Positions 25,609 through 32,000 are shown, counted from the first letter of the stretch. The stretch is 32,000 bases of DNA from Deferrisoma camini S3R1 (GCF_000526155.1 NZ_JAFN01000001.1:3070264-3102263); one strand, 5' to 3'. The notes: generated by a model from the letters alone, not told the origin. Numbers and translations: made by a program.

Positions 25609-27480
25609 TCACCCCCTTCGGCCCAGGGCCTCCAGGACCCACTCGGCGAGCCGGTCGTACACCTGGGCCGCGGCCTCGTCCACGTGGGGGCCGAGGCACT
25701 GCTCCTCGACCCGCTCCAGGTACCCGGCCCAGGCCCGCTCCAAGGCCACGGCCACCCCGGCCCGCCGGGCCGCCCCGCCCACCGCTCCGCCGGGCAGGAG
25801 CCGCTGCCACAGCCCCCCCGGCCGGCCCGGGCCCACCGTGCCCCGGAACAGGGGGATCTTCCGGGTGGCCGTGATCTCCCGGACCAGGGCCCGGCGATCG
25901 GGCGGAGGCGGAGGCCTCAGGCCGGCCCGGGCCAACGCCTCGGCCGCCTGCCGGGCCAGGTCCTCGCCCGCCCGGGCCAGGGCGGCCCGGGCCTCCAGGG
26001 CCAGGTTGCGCACCGCGTTCACCCGCAGGGGCTCGGTGGCCGCGAGCACGGCCTCGACCCGGTCGCGGTAGTCCGCCGCCGCAGGGTCGAGGGACGCCAC
26101 CCGTCCGGCCCAGGCCCGGCGGTGGGGTGCCCGGCGGCGGCCGAACCCGGAGCGAAGCCCCGCGGAGATCCCCGCCTTGGCCTGCCGGGCCGCGGCCTCC
26201 ATGCGCTCGGAGAGCCACCCCAGGAGCGCGTCGGCCGTGTCGGCCCGCCAGGGCCCCCGGCCCAGGCCGAGGGCCGTGCCGGCGCCCAAGGCCCGCCCCG
26301 CCTCCGCCACGACCCGCCGCAGGTCGGCCCGGCACCGGGCCAGGATCAGCCGGTCCCGCCGAGCGGCCACCTCGTCCCACAGCTCGTCCCGGAACGACCG
26401 GAACGCGTCCCGCAGGATCGGCGTGAGGGCCGAGGACTCCCACGCCTCCCGCAGCCGGGCCTCGCCGGCCGAGAGACCGGCCGGATTCGTCAGGGCCAGC
26501 CGGTCCAGGAGCCCGAGCAGGGCCGAGACCACGGCCGGCCGGCCGGCCACGCCCAGCCCCCGCAGGTGCCGAACCACCGACTCCTCCACCCGGCGCAGGT
26601 GCTCGGGCCGGCCCAGCTCGGACAGGTCGGCGTTCAGCACGAACCGGGTGACCCCCAGGAGCCCGTACCCCTGCAGGACCTCCAGGAACCGCAGGTCCGC
26701 CTCCCGGAGCCCCACCCGGCCCGAGATCACGTACACCACGGCGTGGGCGTCGAGGAGGGCCCGGTCCACCACGGCGCCGTGGGCCGCGTTCCAGGCGTCC
26801 ACGCCGGGGCAGTCGGCCAGCACCACCCCCTCGGGCAGGTCGGGCGCGGGCACGTCCACCCACACCCGGCTCAGGAACGCGGCCACCTCGTCCCGGGCCA
26901 CCCAGGCCCACAGATCGCCGTGCGCCCCCAGGTCCTCGACCCGGGGCTCCGGCCCCACCCGGTCGGCCGCGGCCTCGGCCCCCCGGACCAGGGCCCCCAA
27001 CGCCTCCCGAAGGGGCGAGGGCGGCCCGTCCAGCAGGGCCCGGGCCGCGCGCCGGTGGTCGGGGTTCCACAGGTCCCAGTCCCCCGGCCGGCCCAACGCC
27101 TCCAGGTGCAGGCCGAACGCCCGGTTCACCTCGGCCCGGCTCCTCCAGGTGATGCGGACCGCCGCCCGGTCCGCCGGCACCACCTCGGTCACCTGGGCCG
27201 TGAGCACCCCCGAGCCCCGGGGCAGCAGGTCCCGGCCCACCAGGGCGTTGGCCAGGGTGGACTTGCCCGACTTCACGGCCCCCACCAGGGCCACCCGCAC
27301 CCGGGCCTCGCAGGCCCGCCGGGCCGCGGCGTCCAGGTCCGCGAGCCATCCGGCCGCCCGGTCCGCCAGATCCGGCCGGGAGGCGGCGAGGGTCCGGAGC
27401 CTCTCCCGGGCCTCGGCCACGGCCCGCTCCACCTCGGCCCGCAGCCGCGCCTCCCGGGCCTGGCGCAGCGGCTCGGTCAC
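25609..27480 (-). CDS. Dynamin-family (bacterial dynamin-like) GTPase, soluble
   Basis: GTG at 27480 overlaps the Nudix stop (GTGA). G1 GAVKSGKST, G3 DCPGVD, degenerate G4 LNADL. Long Arg/Ala-rich helical stalk. No TM segment seen. Confidence 0.8.
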   Translation of the reverse strand: MTEPLRQAREARLRAEVERAVAEARERLRTLAASRPDLADRAAGWLADLDAAARRACEARVRVALVGAVKSGKSTLANALVGRDLLPRGSGVLTAQVTEVVPADRAAVRITWRSRAEVNRAFGLHLEALGRPGDWDLWNPDHRRAARALLDGPPSPLREALGALVRGAEAAADRVGPEPRVEDLGAHGDLWAWVARDEVAAFLSRVWVDVPAPDLPEGVVLADCPGVDAWNAAHGAVVDRALLDAHAVVYVISGRVGLREADLRFLEVLQGYGLLGVTRFVLNADLSELGRPEHLRRVEESVVRHLRGLGVAGRPAVVSALLGLLDRLALTNPAGLSAGEARLREAWESSALTPILRDAFRSFRDELWDEVAARRDRLILARCRADLRRVVAEAGRALGAGTALGLGRGPWRADTADALLGWLSERMEAAARQAKAGISAGLRSGFGRRRAPHRRAWAGRVASLDPAAADYRDRVEAVLAATEPLRVNAVRNLALEARAALARAGEDLARQAAEALARAGLRPPPPPDRRALVREITATRKIPLFRGTVGPGRPGGLWQRLLPGGAVGGAARRAGVAVALERAWAGYLERVEEQCLGPHVDEAAAQVYDRLAEWVLEALGRRG

Positions 27481-28097
27481 CGGCCCTCCCGGTGGAGGGC
27501 CCAGGCCAGCTCGGACCACAGCTCGAACCCAGCCCCCTCGGGAAGGGCCCCGGCGGGGTCGCCCGGGGGGGCCCACCGGTGGCCCCGCAGCTCACCGTCC
27601 CCGTCCCGGGCCGTGGCCGGGTCCACCGTGAGCCGGCAGCACACCCCCACGTGCACCCGACCCACCTCGGACTCGTCCTCGCTGATCAGCCCCACCACCT
27701 CCAGGCCGCCCAGCCACCGCACGGGGTACTCCTCCTCCACCTCCCGCCGGGCGGCCCGGGCCAGGAGCTTCGGCCCGGGGGCCTCGTCGCCGGCCGCGTC
27801 GGCCCGGTCGATGTGCCCGCCGATCCCCAGGCTCCAGAAGGCGTGGAGCCGCGCCTCGGTGCCCTGACGGGGGTAGACCAGCACCCGCCCGTCCGGGTCG
27901 AACACCGTGACGTAGGGGATCACCTGCTTCCACTCCGGGTCGGTCTCGGCCTCGGGCCGGGGCATCCACCGGGCCCGATCCAGGCCCAGCAGCCCGGCCG
28001 CCTCGGTCCAGGACCCGGCCGCGACCCAGGCCCGGGGGGCCTGCAGCGCCGGGTGCAGGGCGGTTCGGGGAACGACGAGAATCCTCTGGCTCTTCAT
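27477..28097 (-). CDS. Nudix-fold phosphoesterase of the YmaB/COG4112 type
   Basis: ATG at 28097 with GGAGG SD. WKQVIPYV, LHAFWSLGIGGHI, Nudix box remnant AARREVEEE and EVGRVHVGV, matching the COG4112 pattern as I remember it. Confidence 0.78.
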   Translation of the reverse strand: MKSQRILVVPRTALHPALQAPRAWVAAGSWTEAAGLLGLDRARWMPRPEAETDPEWKQVIPYVTVFDPDGRVLVYPRQGTEARLHAFWSLGIGGHIDRADAAGDEAPGPKLLARAARREVEEEYPVRWLGGLEVVGLISEDESEVGRVHVGVCCRLTVDPATARDGDGELRGHRWAPPGDPAGALPEGAGFELWSELAWALHREGR

Positions 28098-28162
28098 GGT
28101 TCCTCCGGTTCGGGGGGTGGCCGGAGTCTGGCACACCGGACGGTTTCGCCTCAACTCCGCCC

Positions 28163-28209
28163 GGCACCAGAAGGGCCGGCCCTGATTGAGGGCCGGCCCT
28201 TCTGGTGCC
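28163..28209 (-). terminator. 20-bp perfect GC-rich hairpin (7-nt loop) immediately 3' of the small peptide ORF
   Basis: GGCACCAGAAGGGCCGGCCC (28163-28182) pairs perfectly with GGGCCGGCCCTTCTGGTGCC (28190-28209). No U-tract, so it could be a terminator, attenuator or RNA-stability element. Confidence 0.7.
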
Positions 28210-28216
28210 TCCAACG

Positions 28217-28279
28217 TCAGCAGGGATGGACGCTGGAGGTTCCCGCGATGCGGGGCTTTACGTAGGGGATCTTCTTCAT
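28217..28279 (-). CDS. 20-aa candidate precursor peptide MKKIPYVKPRIAGTSSVHPC
   Basis: The ATG (28279) overlaps the radical-SAM stop (ATGA). AAGGAGG lies 6 nt upstream. The ORF is followed 7 nt later by the 20-bp hairpin. The genomic context (PqqD + rSAM/SPASM) is typical of peptide substrates. Confidence 0.7.
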   Translation of the reverse strand: MKKIPYVKPRIAGTSSVHPC

Positions 28280-29328
28280 GGCGGTCCTCCTTGGGGCCGG
28301 CCGTTCCCGGCCCAGCAGTGGGGATCGGGGGCGTTGAACGAGCCCGTGGCCGCGAACGCCCGGGCGGTGCACCCGCCCAGACACTCGCCGTACACCCCGC
28401 AGGAGCGGCACTTGCCCTCCGGGGTCTTCTCGCGCATCTTCCGCAGCACCGGTGAGGTGCGCCACAGCACGTCCAGGGGCTGATCGATCAGGTTTCCGGC
28501 CGACACCGGGATGAACCCGCACGGGGTCACCTCGCCGTCGGGCTCCAGGTGCAGCGAGAGCTTGCCGCAGGTGCTGCCCTTCACGGCCCCGGGATCGGCC
28601 CCGCCCAGCAGGGCCAGGATCGGGTCGTCGAACGACAGCTCGGCCGGCGCCCGGGGCCGCCAGGCCAGGGCGTCCTCGTAGAAGGCCCGCCACTCGCCGG
28701 GCGAGAGATCGAGCTCCGCCCGGTTCTCGGCGCCCCGGCCCGCGCACTTGAAGTTGTGCAGGTACACCGTGGTCGCCCCCCGCTCGGCCGCGAGCTCCAC
28801 GATCCGGCGGTACGAGCCCACGTTGTTCCGGTGGATCACGGCCGACACCGTGGACGTCACCCCGGCGGCCCGCAGGTGCTCCAGGGCGGCCAGGGCCCGA
28901 TCGAAGCTACCCGGCCGGGCCCGGAACGCGTCGTGCACCTCGGCCGTGGCCCCGTCGAGGCTCACCCCCACCGAGGCGAACCCCGCGGCCCGGGCCCGCC
29001 GGGCCGCCTCGGCGTCCAGGAGCCACCCGTTGGTGTTCATGCTGACCCGCAGGCCCCGGTCCGCCGCGGCCCGGGCCACCTCCCACAGGTGGGGGTAGCA
29101 CAGCGGCTCGCCCCCCCCGAAGTTCACGAACAGCACCCGGCACCGGGCAAGCTCCTCCACCAGGCCCAGCACCCGCTCCAAGGGGAGCTCCGACCGCGCC
29201 TGGCCGCGGGAGTAGCAGTGCCGGCACGAGAAGTTGCAGGTGTAGGACAGGGTCCAGTTGACGGTGAGGGGTGCGGTGAGCTCCACGGTCAGGCGTCCTC
29301 GGCCACGAGCCAGCCCCGGCTCAGGCAC
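28276..29328 (-). CDS. Radical SAM enzyme with a full C-terminal SPASM domain (peptide-modifying maturase type)
   Basis: CNFSCRHC (CxxxCxxC). SPASM pattern C-x10-G-x4-C ... CRSC-x5-C-x3-C ... C. An alternative GTG at 29286, 2 nt after the PqqD stop, would give a 337-codon gene. Confidence 0.92.
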   Translation of the reverse strand: MPEPGLARGRGRLTVELTAPLTVNWTLSYTCNFSCRHCYSRGQARSELPLERVLGLVEELARCRVLFVNFGGGEPLCYPHLWEVARAAADRGLRVSMNTNGWLLDAEAARRARAAGFASVGVSLDGATAEVHDAFRARPGSFDRALAALEHLRAAGVTSTVSAVIHRNNVGSYRRIVELAAERGATTVYLHNFKCAGRGAENRAELDLSPGEWRAFYEDALAWRPRAPAELSFDDPILALLGGADPGAVKGSTCGKLSLHLEPDGEVTPCGFIPVSAGNLIDQPLDVLWRTSPVLRKMREKTPEGKCRSCGVYGECLGGCTARAFAATGSFNAPDPHCWAGNGRPQGGPP

Positions 29329-29609
29329 TCGGCCACGAACGCCTCCACGTCCTCGCGGATCTCGTCGGCCGGGGCGTCGTACCGGCCCGCCAGCTCGGCC
29401 GCGATGGCGGCGGCGTCCCGGGTGCCGTCGGCCAGGAGCCAGATCTCCCCGGCCAGGAGGTTCAGCTGGTGCATCCGACCGGCGTGGACCAGGATCACCC
29501 AGCCCTCGTCGGCCACGTCCTCGCCCCGCTCCAGGGCGGCGAGGATCCGCTCCCGGGCCCCGGGCTCGTCGCGCCAGGCCAGCGAAGGGTTTCGGCGAAG
29601 CACGGTCAC
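29289..29609 (-). CDS. Stand-alone PqqD-family peptide-binding (RRE) protein
   Basis: 106 aa. LNLLAGEIWLLADGTRDAAAIAAELAGRYDAPADEIREDVEAFVAECLSRGWL fits the PqqD family pattern. GTG start 5 nt after the upstream lipoprotein stop. Confidence 0.85.
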   Translation of the reverse strand: MTVLRRNPSLAWRDEPGARERILAALERGEDVADEGWVILVHAGRMHQLNLLAGEIWLLADGTRDAAAIAAELAGRYDAPADEIREDVEAFVAECLSRGWLVAEDA

Positions 29610-29614
29610 GGCGG

Positions 29615-30487
29615 CTACTTCTTCCTTTCCGGCGTGCCCCAGGGGACGGGCAGCCGGGGCTCCACGTTCACCCGGCCCACCCCTTCGGAGTCGGCGCCGT
29701 CGAAGATCCGGTCGGCGAGCCGGCCCTTCTCGTCGGCCTTCCACCAGTTGTTTCCGGCGTCCACGTCGTCGGTCTGGGCCTCGCCGAGCTTCAGATCGTA
29801 CTCCCGATCGTCGAAGTTGTTTCGCCGCAGCACCGCGCCGGTCACGCCCTGCCGGAAGAAGATGCCGGTGAGGTTGCCCACGAACCAGTTCTCCTCGATC
29901 ACCGGCGAGCTGTTGAGGCACCGGATCCCGATCCGGTTCTCCTCGAACCGGCACCCCCGGATCACCACCCGGCCCCCCTGGAACCGCACCCCGCCGTAGT
30001 TGTTGCGGAACGTGCAGTCCTCGAACTCCACCGGGGTGAAGTGGCTGTGCACGGCCCACGGGCCCCGCTCGAACACCACCCGCCGCAGGTGGGCCTCCTT
30101 GGCCTTTTCGAAGGAGATCACGTCCTCGAACTCGTTGTTGCGCAGGGGCACCGAGGTGATCTCGATCGGCGCCTCCGGCGTGCCCAGGGCCACCAGGCTC
30201 CCCAGCACCCGGATCCACGGCTCCGGGTCCTCGCCGGCCTTGGGCTCGGGCAGATCGAAGTACACGCGGGTGCCGGGCAGGAGGGTCAGGGTGGCGGTCT
30301 TGGTCACGATGAGGGGCCGAACCAGCCGGACCTCCCCGCGCCACACCGTGGGGGCGTAGAGGATGTGCCGGGTCTCGGTGCGGGCCGTGGCCGGGACCGA
30401 GATCGTCTTGGGCTGGGGCAGGGTCACGCACGCCGCGAGCCCCACCGCCGTCGCCGCCCCCAGGAGCCACCATCGCCGCAGACCCAT
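29615..30487 (-). CDS. Lipoprotein with right-handed parallel beta-helix repeats (NosD/CASH-like)
   Basis: Signal peptide with lipobox GLAAC. PbH1-like repeats (FRNNYGGVRFQGG, IRGCRFEENRIGIRC, IEENWFVGNLTGIFF, LRRNNF). GGAAGGAGG SD. Confidence 0.8.
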   Translation of the reverse strand: MGLRRWWLLGAATAVGLAACVTLPQPKTISVPATARTETRHILYAPTVWRGEVRLVRPLIVTKTATLTLLPGTRVYFDLPEPKAGEDPEPWIRVLGSLVALGTPEAPIEITSVPLRNNEFEDVISFEKAKEAHLRRVVFERGPWAVHSHFTPVEFEDCTFRNNYGGVRFQGGRVVIRGCRFEENRIGIRCLNSSPVIEENWFVGNLTGIFFRQGVTGAVLRRNNFDDREYDLKLGEAQTDDVDAGNNWWKADEKGRLADRIFDGADSEGVGRVNVEPRLPVPWGTPERKK

Positions 30488-30504
30488 CGCCCGCCTCCTT
30501 CCAT

Positions 30505-30532
30505 GTAACTTCGGTCGTCAGTCGTCGGTCGA
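30505..30532 (-). repeat. Heptad leader cassette 5' of the beta-helix lipoprotein gene
   Basis: Minus-strand sense reads TCGACCG ACGACTG ACGACCG AAGTTAC ATGGAAGGAGG CGGGCG ATG. Confidence 0.75.
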
Positions 30533-30557
30533 AAGCTCGCCCCGACATCGGAGCCGG

Positions 30558-30600
30558 GGGGCATGGGGCCTGGTGGAGCGGCAGACAACGGCACGCGAAG
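30558..30600. repeat. Half copy of the palindromic element family (copy G)
   Basis: GGGGCATGGGGCCTGGTGGAGCGG shares the GGGGCYTGGTGGAGC core with copies B and D. It is the reverse complement of the right arm at 8740-8757. Confidence 0.6.
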
Positions 30601-30656
30601 GCCCGGCGATCAGATGCGGCACTCGCGGCCTACCAAAGTGGAAGACCGGCTCCGGA

Positions 30657-31715
30657 TCAATGGGACCGGGCCGAGGCGCCCAGACCCAGGAGCGCAGCCA
30701 GCCCGACCAGCACCGCCACCTTCCCGGCCGCCGGCACTCCGGCGGCCGACGCGCCCAAGCCCCAAACCTGCACGAGCACCGCGCCCGCGCCCATGCCCAC
30801 CACCGTGGCGGCCGCGTCCAGGTCGCCCTCGCCGGCCCGCACGATCTGCCGGAACGGACACCCGCCCGCCACCACGGCGGCCGCGCCCACCAGCCCCATC
30901 CCCAAAAAGCTCCACAGCCACTCCAGGTGGGCGCCGGGCTGGTCATAATAGCCAAGCCGGAACTGACCCGTAAACCCGTCGGCCAACCCGGCCGCCGCGA
31001 GCAGCCCTCCCAGGGCCAGGACCGCCCCCGGGCTGCGCACGAGCAGGATGTCGCGCACCGACCCGGTGATGCAGAACCGCGATCGCTGACAGGCGACCCC
31101 GATCGCCAACCCCGCGGCCAGGCTGATCCAGACCGGGGCGTGGAGCGCCCCGGGCCCGCTCCGGCTCTCCAGCAGGATCCCCGGCCGGAACAGGAGAGCC
31201 GTGAGGACCAGGGCCCCCACGACCAGCCCTGCGGGCACCAGCCACGGCACCGGCCGGGCCCGGCCGCCGCCATCCAGGTCGCCCCGCCGAACCAGGCGGA
31301 GCCCCCCCCACACCCCGGCCACCAGGCCCACCGCCCCGGCCACGGCGGTCAGGTCCCCGGCGGCGAGCCGCAACATCATCTTGATCGGGCAGCCGATGAA
31401 CACGGCCGAGCCCACGATCATCAGGAGCCCCAGGCCCAGCAGGTGGGCCCCGGCCGCTCGGGCCCGCGGCCGGAACTCCCGCGCGGCCAGGGCGGCGGCG
31501 GCACTGCCCAGGAAGAACCCCAGGAGCTCGGGCCGCAGGTACCGCATGCGGGGGTTGGGGTGCAGCCCCAGGGCGCCCACCGCGTTCTCCAGGAAGCACG
31601 AGATGCAGATCCCCGTGTTCGGCGGATTGCCCCAGTAGGCCAGGAGGCTGCCGAACAGCCCCATCAGGAGCCCGGCGGCCACGATCCACCCGTGCCGGGC
31701 CAGTCTCCCCCTCAT
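30657..31715 (-). CDS. yedE: YedE/YeeE-family transporter (putative selenium/sulfur-compound transporter)
   Basis: 352 aa polytopic protein. N-terminal YWGNPPNTGICISCFLENAVGALGLH and later GGCPFRQ match the YedE selenium-metabolism subfamily as I recall it. Confidence 0.8.
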   Translation of the reverse strand: MRGRLARHGWIVAAGLLMGLFGSLLAYWGNPPNTGICISCFLENAVGALGLHPNPRMRYLRPELLGFFLGSAAAALAAREFRPRARAAGAHLLGLGLLMIVGSAVFIGCPIKMMLRLAAGDLTAVAGAVGLVAGVWGGLRLVRRGDLDGGGRARPVPWLVPAGLVVGALVLTALLFRPGILLESRSGPGALHAPVWISLAAGLAIGVACQRSRFCITGSVRDILLVRSPGAVLALGGLLAAAGLADGFTGQFRLGYYDQPGAHLEWLWSFLGMGLVGAAAVVAGGCPFRQIVRAGEGDLDAAATVVGMGAGAVLVQVWGLGASAAGVPAAGKVAVLVGLAALLGLGASARSH

Positions 31716-32000
31716 TCGCACCCCCCCGCCAGCCGGCGCTGGAGGGCGTAGAGCTCTCGGATCTCCGGCGGCCGTCGGGTCGCCCACGGCCCCTTCCGGA
31801 TCGAAGCCAGCCGCTCGGCCATGCGCTCGCCCGACCGGAACGGTCCGTTCCGGTCGGCCACGGCCGGGTTCTCGTCCACGGCCCGGCCGTAGGCCCGCAC
31901 CGCCTCGGCCCACGCCCCCTGGCGGTAGGCCGCCTCGCCCAGCCAGAACCACGCCCACGCAGGGTACGGCCCGGAGCGGGCCCTCTGTCGAAGATCCAGC
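31712..32000 (-). CDS. TPR-repeat protein, C-terminal part (5' end outside window)
   Basis: The frame stays open to the window edge. WFWLGEAAYRQGAWAEAVRAYGRAVDENP is a canonical TPR motif. Stop overlaps the yedE ATG (ATGA). Confidence 0.6.
   Translation of the reverse strand, partial: LDLRQRARSGPYPAWAWFWLGEAAYRQGAWAEAVRAYGRAVDENPAVADRNGPFRSGERMAERLASIRKGPWATRRPPEIRELYALQRRLAGGCE

Follow-up and report, generated by a model that had tools for sequence, protein, structure and literature searches.

The beta-helix protein encoded at positions 29615-30487 (minus strand) of a 32,000-nucleotide stretch of the genome of Deferrisoma camini S3R1 very probably belongs to a peptide modification system of GeoRSP type, as a conserved component located outside the cytoplasm. 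In what follows, "the window" is this whole stretch, at its full length. As judged from homology searches, the protein family was shown to be almost confined to genomes possessing GeoRSP, and its genes usually lie within a few kb of the GeoRSP genes. Our overall explanation, to which we give a probability of about 0.55, is that the protein is the exported partner of GeoRSP and that it handles the peptide product of the system in the periplasm.

The lipoprotein and its operon

The gene is an open reading frame of 290 codons on the minus strand, with an ATG start and a TAG stop at 29617-29615. The DNA of the window has about 70% G+C and contains long open frames in several phases; despite this we concluded that the frame is a real one and not the product of chance, because it has syntenic homologues in 16 other genomes, with identities of 33-93%. 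We read the first 20 residues by eye against the lipobox pattern [LVI][ASTVI][GAS]C: two arginines (R4 and R5) are followed by a hydrophobic run and by L-A-A-C at 17-20. The protein would thus be lipidated at Cys20 and has the features of a signal peptidase II substrate, that is, of a bacterial lipoprotein, as the original prediction had it. The Pfam model Beta_helix (PF13229) matches with 6.4e-10 and 39.3 bits (cut-off 25.9), and the Pfam model NosD (PF05048) with 2.1e-6 and 27.7 bits (cut-off 23.6). The AlphaFold2 model, built on an alignment of 41 sequences, has a mean pLDDT of 95.0 and a pTM of 0.88, and one can see in it a signal helix at the N-terminus, after which regular short strands are stacked at residues 36-234. 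In this model the lipoprotein is a right-handed parallel beta-helix, and the beta-helix fold announced by the original prediction stands.

Every orthologue that we aligned carries either a lipobox or a signal peptide. The orthologues of families f1-f3 have lipobox-like motifs, whereas those of family f4 have, according to our reading of the sequences, ordinary signal peptides of the signal-peptidase-I type. This means that export is conserved and that lipid anchoring is not. In the alignment, W144, H147 and H149 are invariant and are all located on one strand. Three arginines (R168, R189 and R212) occupy matching positions of the next turns, the register of the turns being read from the sequence, and are followed by an EYDxKLGExQ block; the alignment also shows an NWW / IFDGxD cap. 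No cysteine of the mature protein is conserved among the aligned orthologues. Two histidines spaced two residues apart on a strand face one way, which is a common arrangement for the binding of a metal or of another ligand. Of 14 diverse members of the family, 11 retain the HxH motif, domains encoded at canonical GeoRSP loci included. We defined the family by its co-occurrence and neighbourhood with the GeoRSP radical SAM (rSAM) gene, by an N-terminal cap DTxWxG...PGT, by the HxH strand and by the cap NWWG...IFDGxD; the protein of the window has all of these features.

The original prediction had placed the lipoprotein gene first in its operon. This has to be corrected: the gene is internal, since genes for a YedE-family transporter, a TPR protein and a PhnD-like binding protein lie upstream of it, and the YedE stop overlaps the start of the beta-helix gene by 4 nt in at least ten relatives. 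The PhnD-like gene precedes the TPR gene just outside the window (genome positions 3102465-3103802) and shares 54% identity with its counterpart in the canonical GeoRSP operon (genome G151, see below). The gene of the membrane-anchored TPR protein (genome positions 3101975-3102535) enters the window by its 3' part only (31712-32000, minus strand, frame open to the edge of the window), and its TGA overlaps the ATG of the YedE gene as ATGA at 31712-31715. The YedE-family membrane protein (30657-31715, minus strand), a putative selenium/sulfur transporter, scores 333.7 bits against TIGR04112 (cut-off 200) and is the sole match above this cut-off in the genome. Between the YedE and the lipoprotein genes lies a spacer of 169 nt (30488-30656, minus strand) which exists in this genus only, the two genes overlapping by 4 nt in other genera. 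We found no terminator-like or promoter site in this spacer, and its fold is not more stable than that of shuffled sequence (z = 0.82). Because of the gap, a separate promoter for the lipoprotein gene is possible in this genus.

Downstream, the TAG of the lipoprotein gene is separated by the five bases 29610-29614 from the GTG start at 29609 of the PqqD gene, exactly as had been claimed. The PqqD-family peptide chaperone (RRE), of 106 aa, extends over 29289-29609 on the minus strand (PF05402, 7.7e-17). It is followed by the radical SAM/SPASM peptide maturase of GeoRSP type (28276-29328, minus strand; PF04055 and PF13186; TIGR04303, 394.5 bits), the true start of which is probably the GTG at 29286, directly after the PqqD stop, since the orthologues begin at the corresponding residue. 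The ATG of the precursor peptide gene (28217-28279, minus strand), of 20 codons ending in ...SSVHPC, overlaps the TGA of the rSAM gene as ATGA. On the 3' side of the peptide stop, a perfect G+C-rich hairpin read from the sequence (28163-28209, no strand given) is likely to be the end of the transcript or a stabiliser of it. Read from gene spacing and order, then, the predicted operon is tightly packed and runs PhnD-like, TPR, YedE, beta-helix, PqqD, rSAM/SPASM and 20-aa precursor, with the beta-helix gene in its interior. The 5-nt gap and the order shared with relatives uphold the tight coupling of the beta-helix gene to the PqqD, rSAM and peptide genes. The operon contains no dedicated peptide exporter, and the precursor has no signal sequence. 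Beyond the hairpin, at 25609-28214, Nudix and dynamin-like genes are found beside the cluster only within the same genus; we do not count them as part of the GeoRSP-type system.

Conservation of the association with GeoRSP

D. camini belongs to the order Deferrisomatales of the phylum Thermodesulfobacteriota; its genome is called G000 below, and our statements of orthology are based on BLAST identities. The YedE, beta-helix, PqqD, rSAM order is invariant in the window and in 16 related loci, that is, in 17 genomes of Deferrisomatales from four families. The original prediction counted on finding the lipoprotein gene syntenic with the rSAM and PqqD genes in other genomes, and the order is indeed held in 17/17 of the Deferrisomatales genomes carrying the rSAM gene, our own included. 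Among 40 relatives, an orthologue of the rSAM gene always has an orthologue of the beta-helix gene beside it. The YedE gene is directly upstream of the beta-helix gene in 16/16 related loci, with the 4-nt overlap between the YedE stop and the beta-helix start in at least ten of these loci; the beta-helix stop and the PqqD start overlap as well, by 4 nt, in many relatives. In one of the 16 loci (L054, G020:C14:10000-24000) the YedE, beta-helix, PqqD and rSAM genes are all broken by frameshifts and stops, which reflects either decay or errors of a long-read metagenome assembly.

We then took the phylum as a whole, with a sample of 401 genomes evenly drawn on which both searches were made. The GeoRSP rSAM gene (E <= 1e-70) was found in 22 of the 401 genomes, from nine families. 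The beta-helix family (E <= 1e-20) was found in 24, which are all the 22 GeoRSP genomes plus G239 and G320, two genomes where no GeoRSP rSAM can be found even at 1e-30. The co-occurrence which the original prediction had asked to be tested is present: the beta-helix family occurs in 22/22 GeoRSP genomes versus 2/379 of the others. Mixed families are concordant, both genes being present in 2/6 genomes of f30 and in 3/4 of f2. We give counts and no P value, because related genomes are not independent samples.

Outside the order, 8 of the 10 GeoRSP genomes have a beta-helix homologue at less than 10 kb from the rSAM gene. These genomes have 4-6 homologues each, and in six of them the one near the rSAM gene is the best of the genome. 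Likewise, 8 of the 10 loci show a linkage of YedE with GeoRSP. The exceptions to the proximity of the beta-helix gene are two metagenome loci of Pseudomonadota and family f25, which have GeoRSP and no nearby beta-helix gene. In the canonical loci of G151 and G267, the beta-helix gene immediately precedes the PqqD gene, as it does in the window. The core proteins of G151 exceed all three GeoRSP cut-offs (161, 622 and 355 bits). Its operon encodes, in this order, a CarboxypepD_reg protein, the peptide, an 844-aa triple beta-helix, a CarboxypepD_reg/Big_1 protein, an OpuAC-like protein, a ResB-like protein, a NicO/RcnA-like transporter, a TPR protein, a 329-aa beta-helix, PqqD, the rSAM enzyme, a SPASM-only protein, a PhnD-like protein, a small unknown protein and YedE. 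The closer match to the lipoprotein of the window is domain 3 of the triple beta-helix, with 37% identity versus 27% for the beta-helix adjacent to PqqD.

GeoRSP is described in NCBIfam as a set of three cytoplasmic proteins (TIGR04302, TIGR04303 and TIGR04304) without a dedicated beta-helix model, only the NosD subfamily model matching, far below its cut-off. The system of the window shares with it an adjacent PqqD and rSAM/SPASM pair having these models as best matches, a precursor family ending in VHPC which is common to the canonical loci, and the YedE, PhnD-like, TPR and beta-helix genes also present in the G151 operon. It differs by its scores, which are below the cut-offs, just so for the rSAM enzyme (394.5 versus 400 bits for TIGR04303) and clearly so for PqqD, for which TIGR04302, the GeoRSP PqqD model, is the best model although the match reaches only 73 bits, versus a cut-off of 100, next to the rSAM gene. 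In the same order, the rSAM orthologues score 379-414 bits and so straddle the cut-off of 400; the second family for the enzyme of the window is the mycofactocin maturase, with 213.7 bits. A further difference is that the SPASM-only protein is missing: no TIGR04304 protein exists in the whole genome, the best match (49 versus 300 bits) being the SPASM domain of the rSAM enzyme itself. Finally, the window has a single-domain beta-helix lipoprotein between YedE and PqqD. Taken on these model scores and gene contents, the system of the window is best described as a reduced variant of GeoRSP-type peptide modification.

As in the PQQ (PqqA/D/E) and mycofactocin (MftA/B/C) systems, one finds here a very short precursor, a chaperone of PqqD type and an rSAM/SPASM enzyme, and the modification is expected at the C-terminus. 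In contrast with theirs, which has Glu/Tyr or Val-Tyr, the core of the window's peptide ends in His-Pro-Cys; PqqB/C and MftD/E/F are absent, and the accompanying genes are those of YedE and of exported proteins with a beta-helix. The family TIGR04133, "rSAM_w_lipo", is by its name what we take to be a precedent for an rSAM/SPASM enzyme paired with a lipoprotein. The enzyme of the window is not a member of it, as it scores 85.6 bits against a cut-off of 425. We found no paper on the GeoRSP system, and neither the papers on the Geobacter extHIJKLMNOPQS genes nor the 2015 paper on the comparative genomics of selenium mentions the genes discussed here.

Two loci should be mentioned beside these. 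In G320, an 18-kb array (L139, G320:C27:12000-30878) carries CarboxypepD_reg, beta-helix, OpuAC-like and ResB-like genes, and neither a GeoRSP rSAM gene nor a peptide gene was found in that genome. Hence an envelope module of this kind can exist without GeoRSP. In our own genome, a second locus (L105, G000:C1:2687948-2690864) contains a pair of paralogues: a beta-helix protein with 53% identity to the lipoprotein, and a PhnD-like protein with 55% identity to that of the canonical G151 operon. Beside this pair are encoded a beta-helix/BamB-like fusion, a PAS histidine kinase as well as a membrane polyferredoxin (Fer4_5), and the locus has no rSAM gene close by.

The precursor peptide and its copies

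A search with the back-translated pattern KPx[IV]xGxSxVHPC followed by a stop gave 17 matches in 10 of the 401 genomes, and none with the reversed pattern as a control. With looser patterns and with regular expressions applied to the fetched loci, the peptide is present in 18 of the 22 GeoRSP genomes. Its stop codon is mostly TGA, and it is TAA or TAG in G006, G041 and G081. Because homologues end with TAA or TAG, the peptide truly ends with a cysteine and the TGA is a real stop. We had considered a selenocysteine read-through of this TGA, which was favoured by the adjacent YedE gene, by two predicted tRNA-Sec genes, by SelB, by a SelD gene containing a TGA and by the hairpin after the TGA. 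We rejected it: besides the TAA and TAG of the homologues, what would be encoded beyond the TGA shows no conservation, and no SECIS model matches. Compared with Rfam, the hairpin region gave spurious hairpin matches only, and it is not a SECIS element. The in-frame TGAs seen within rSAM matches were discarded as well, as they come from alignments extending beyond the true stop codon. In the low-G+C family f4 (loci L049-L053, to be compared with 28163-28220 of the window), the TGA of the peptide is followed by a hairpin and then, 60-100 nt further on, by a separate T-rich terminator. SelD (G000:C1:2674710-2675627) has one in-frame TGA and is for this reason probably a selenoprotein itself. ARAGORN predicts two tRNA-Sec genes (3684895-3684988 and 4115643-4115740), which would be unusual if both are real.

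Our own genome contains a second VHPC copy, MKRTTYVKPKIVGTSSVHPC (G000:C1:2280812-2280874, minus strand; positions 2813-2875 of locus L104). It comes directly after the gene of a 1064-aa exported Big_1/Invasin_D3/lipoyl-like protein, itself preceded by a cytochrome gene which exceeds 2600 codons and encodes at least 45 CxxCH motifs. Cytochrome, Big_1 and peptide genes are arranged in the same way in G006, with three copies, and in the distant G041. In G119, G342 and G388, copies of the peptide come directly after homologues of the C-terminal part of the giant cytochrome. In all six genomes (G000, G006, G041, G119, G342 and G388), then, copies of the peptide follow a cytochrome with about 50 haems or a Big_1 protein; in G151, which is Geobacter-like, the peptide gene comes directly before the 844-aa triple beta-helix gene. 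These extra copies beside cytochrome and Big_1 genes place the function of the peptide with envelope proteins, which fits an exported beta-helix partner. The conservation of that partner itself suggests the cell envelope as the site of action of the GeoRSP product. An action of the peptide outside the cell, one of the two possibilities raised in the original prediction, receives indirect support in this way, from copies adjoining the genes of giant multihaem cytochromes, of Big_1 proteins and of the triple beta-helix. In G119, one precursor copy (L142, G119:C1:1165722-1168769) is located directly before the gene of a divergent second rSAM/SPASM protein, about 30% identical to the enzyme of the window, which hints at a second maturase for the VHPC peptide family.

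Possible roles of the beta-helix protein

The explanation that we favour can be worded as follows. In the cytoplasm, the PqqD protein and the rSAM enzyme would modify the peptide in SSVHPC, its C-terminal core. The modified product, or a small molecule cut from the peptide as with PQQ, would reach the periplasm, where the beta-helix protein would bind it, present it or process it, possibly together with a metal or with a sulfur/selenium species. This would be the task of a surface stripe centred on the HxH motif that is conserved on one strand. Proteins of the envelope would then make use of the product, for instance the giant multihaem cytochromes whose genes adjoin further copies of the peptide gene. 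PQQ itself is a cytoplasmic product that serves periplasmic enzymes. The biochemical role of the beta-helix protein as a binder or scaffold, either for the matured peptide or for sulfur/selenium or metal species, is proposed here tentatively, with a confidence somewhat short of even. We regard as rather doubtful, although worth stating, the more specific proposal that the VHPC peptide gives rise to a small factor, which could be a cofactor for redox reactions or one that binds a metal or a chalcogen, and that this factor reaches the envelope to be loaded on, or handled by, the dedicated beta-helix proteins and the giant multihaem cytochromes encoded beside further precursor copies.

The label "NosD-type" used in the original prediction reflects a generic resemblance of domains and does not carry further. 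The resemblance exists: NosD, known from the maturation of N2O reductase by NosDFY (7o0y), is a periplasmic right-handed beta-helix with Pfam NosD/CASH-type repeats, and our protein has in common with it a genomic tie to sulfur/selenium and metal transport genes. The Pfam NosD domain is matched at the 27.7 bits given above and, when the profile of the family is compared with the sequences of the PDB, the NosD chain 7o0y_A comes at the top, only with E = 0.015. If the lipoprotein were a genuine NosD, it would be the periplasmic subunit of an ABC system of NosDFY type maturing a copper-sulfide enzyme. The specific model TIGR04247 (NosD) gives the lipoprotein, however, 20.9 bits for a cut-off of 300, so that it is not a NosD by this model; the operon has no NosF ATPase, no NosY permease and no ABC genes at all; and the genome, which is 98% complete and in a single contig, has no match to TIGR04246 (NosZ, Sec-dependent type), the sole NosZ model that we ran. 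The mature protein of the window has about 250 aa, the NosD chain of known structure 436 aa, and NosD is absent from the top 50 fold matches. We thus rejected the reading as a true NosD and give it hardly any weight. In the Foldseek comparison with the PDB, only generic beta-helix lyases, epimerases and tailspikes are retrieved, all of them weakly (E >= 5e-3).

These fold matches, weak as they are, are polysaccharide lyases, epimerases and tailspikes only, and they would suit a protein active on glycans, or a purely structural beta-helix of the envelope (a lyase, an epimerase or an adhesin-like protein), co-regulated with GeoRSP and having no direct link with the peptide. The beta-helix/CarboxypepD_reg/OpuAC-like/ResB-like module found in G320 with neither the rSAM gene nor the peptide, and the several beta-helix paralogues scattered over the genome of D. 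camini, go in the same direction. This would nevertheless leave the association of 22/22 versus 2/379 and the 4-nt overlaps with the YedE and PqqD genes hard to explain without a shared function, and no glycan biosynthesis gene was seen in the loci examined, so that we hold it to be improbable. A more serious competitor, and the main one, reverses the direction of transport: the beta-helix and PhnD-like proteins would capture a sulfur or selenium oxyanion, or a metal, on the periplasmic side and pass it to YedE for uptake, and the cytoplasmic rSAM enzyme would build the element into or onto the peptide with its terminal cysteine, in which case the beta-helix protein never meets the peptide. 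The position of the beta-helix gene between those of YedE and PqqD, with its translational coupling to YedE in at least ten loci, is what one would expect of such an import, as is the linkage of YedE to GeoRSP in 8 of the 10 loci outside the order. The genome has two places where a beta-helix gene is accompanied by the gene of a PhnD-like protein which lacks an ABC partner, the PhnD-like protein of the canonical operon weakly resembles the models of selenate binding (TIGR04553) and of tetrathionate sensing (TtrS), and the organism uses selenocysteine. Yet beta-helix genes also adjoin peptide genes and cytochrome loci which are distant from YedE, the canonical loci encode large multi-domain beta-helix and CarboxypepD_reg proteins that resemble scaffolds rather than solute binders, and the mature protein lacks a conserved cysteine to carry sulfur or selenium. 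We consider import as unlikely on the whole, while clearly the best placed of the alternatives, and we retain the handling of the peptide product by an exported partner as the preferred explanation.

GeoRSP has been an orphan radical SAM system. It is now tied to an exported beta-helix family, to YedE, and to copies of the precursor beside the genes of cytochromes with about 50 haems, and these three ties locate its function in the cell envelope of bacteria that respire metals and sulfur. The beta-helix family is a conserved GeoRSP partner which was previously unlisted, and with it come experimental handles: proteins to purify, residues to change and, in Geobacter, genes to delete. Should the system make a new peptide-derived cofactor, or a carrier of metal or chalcogen, this would add a pathway beside those of PQQ and mycofactocin and would have a bearing on extracellular electron transfer. 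If the factor were indeed handled in the envelope as in the more specific proposal above, Deferrisomatales, the relatives of Geobacter and allied lineages would possess a cofactor pathway of a new kind, serving extracellular or chalcogen respiration.
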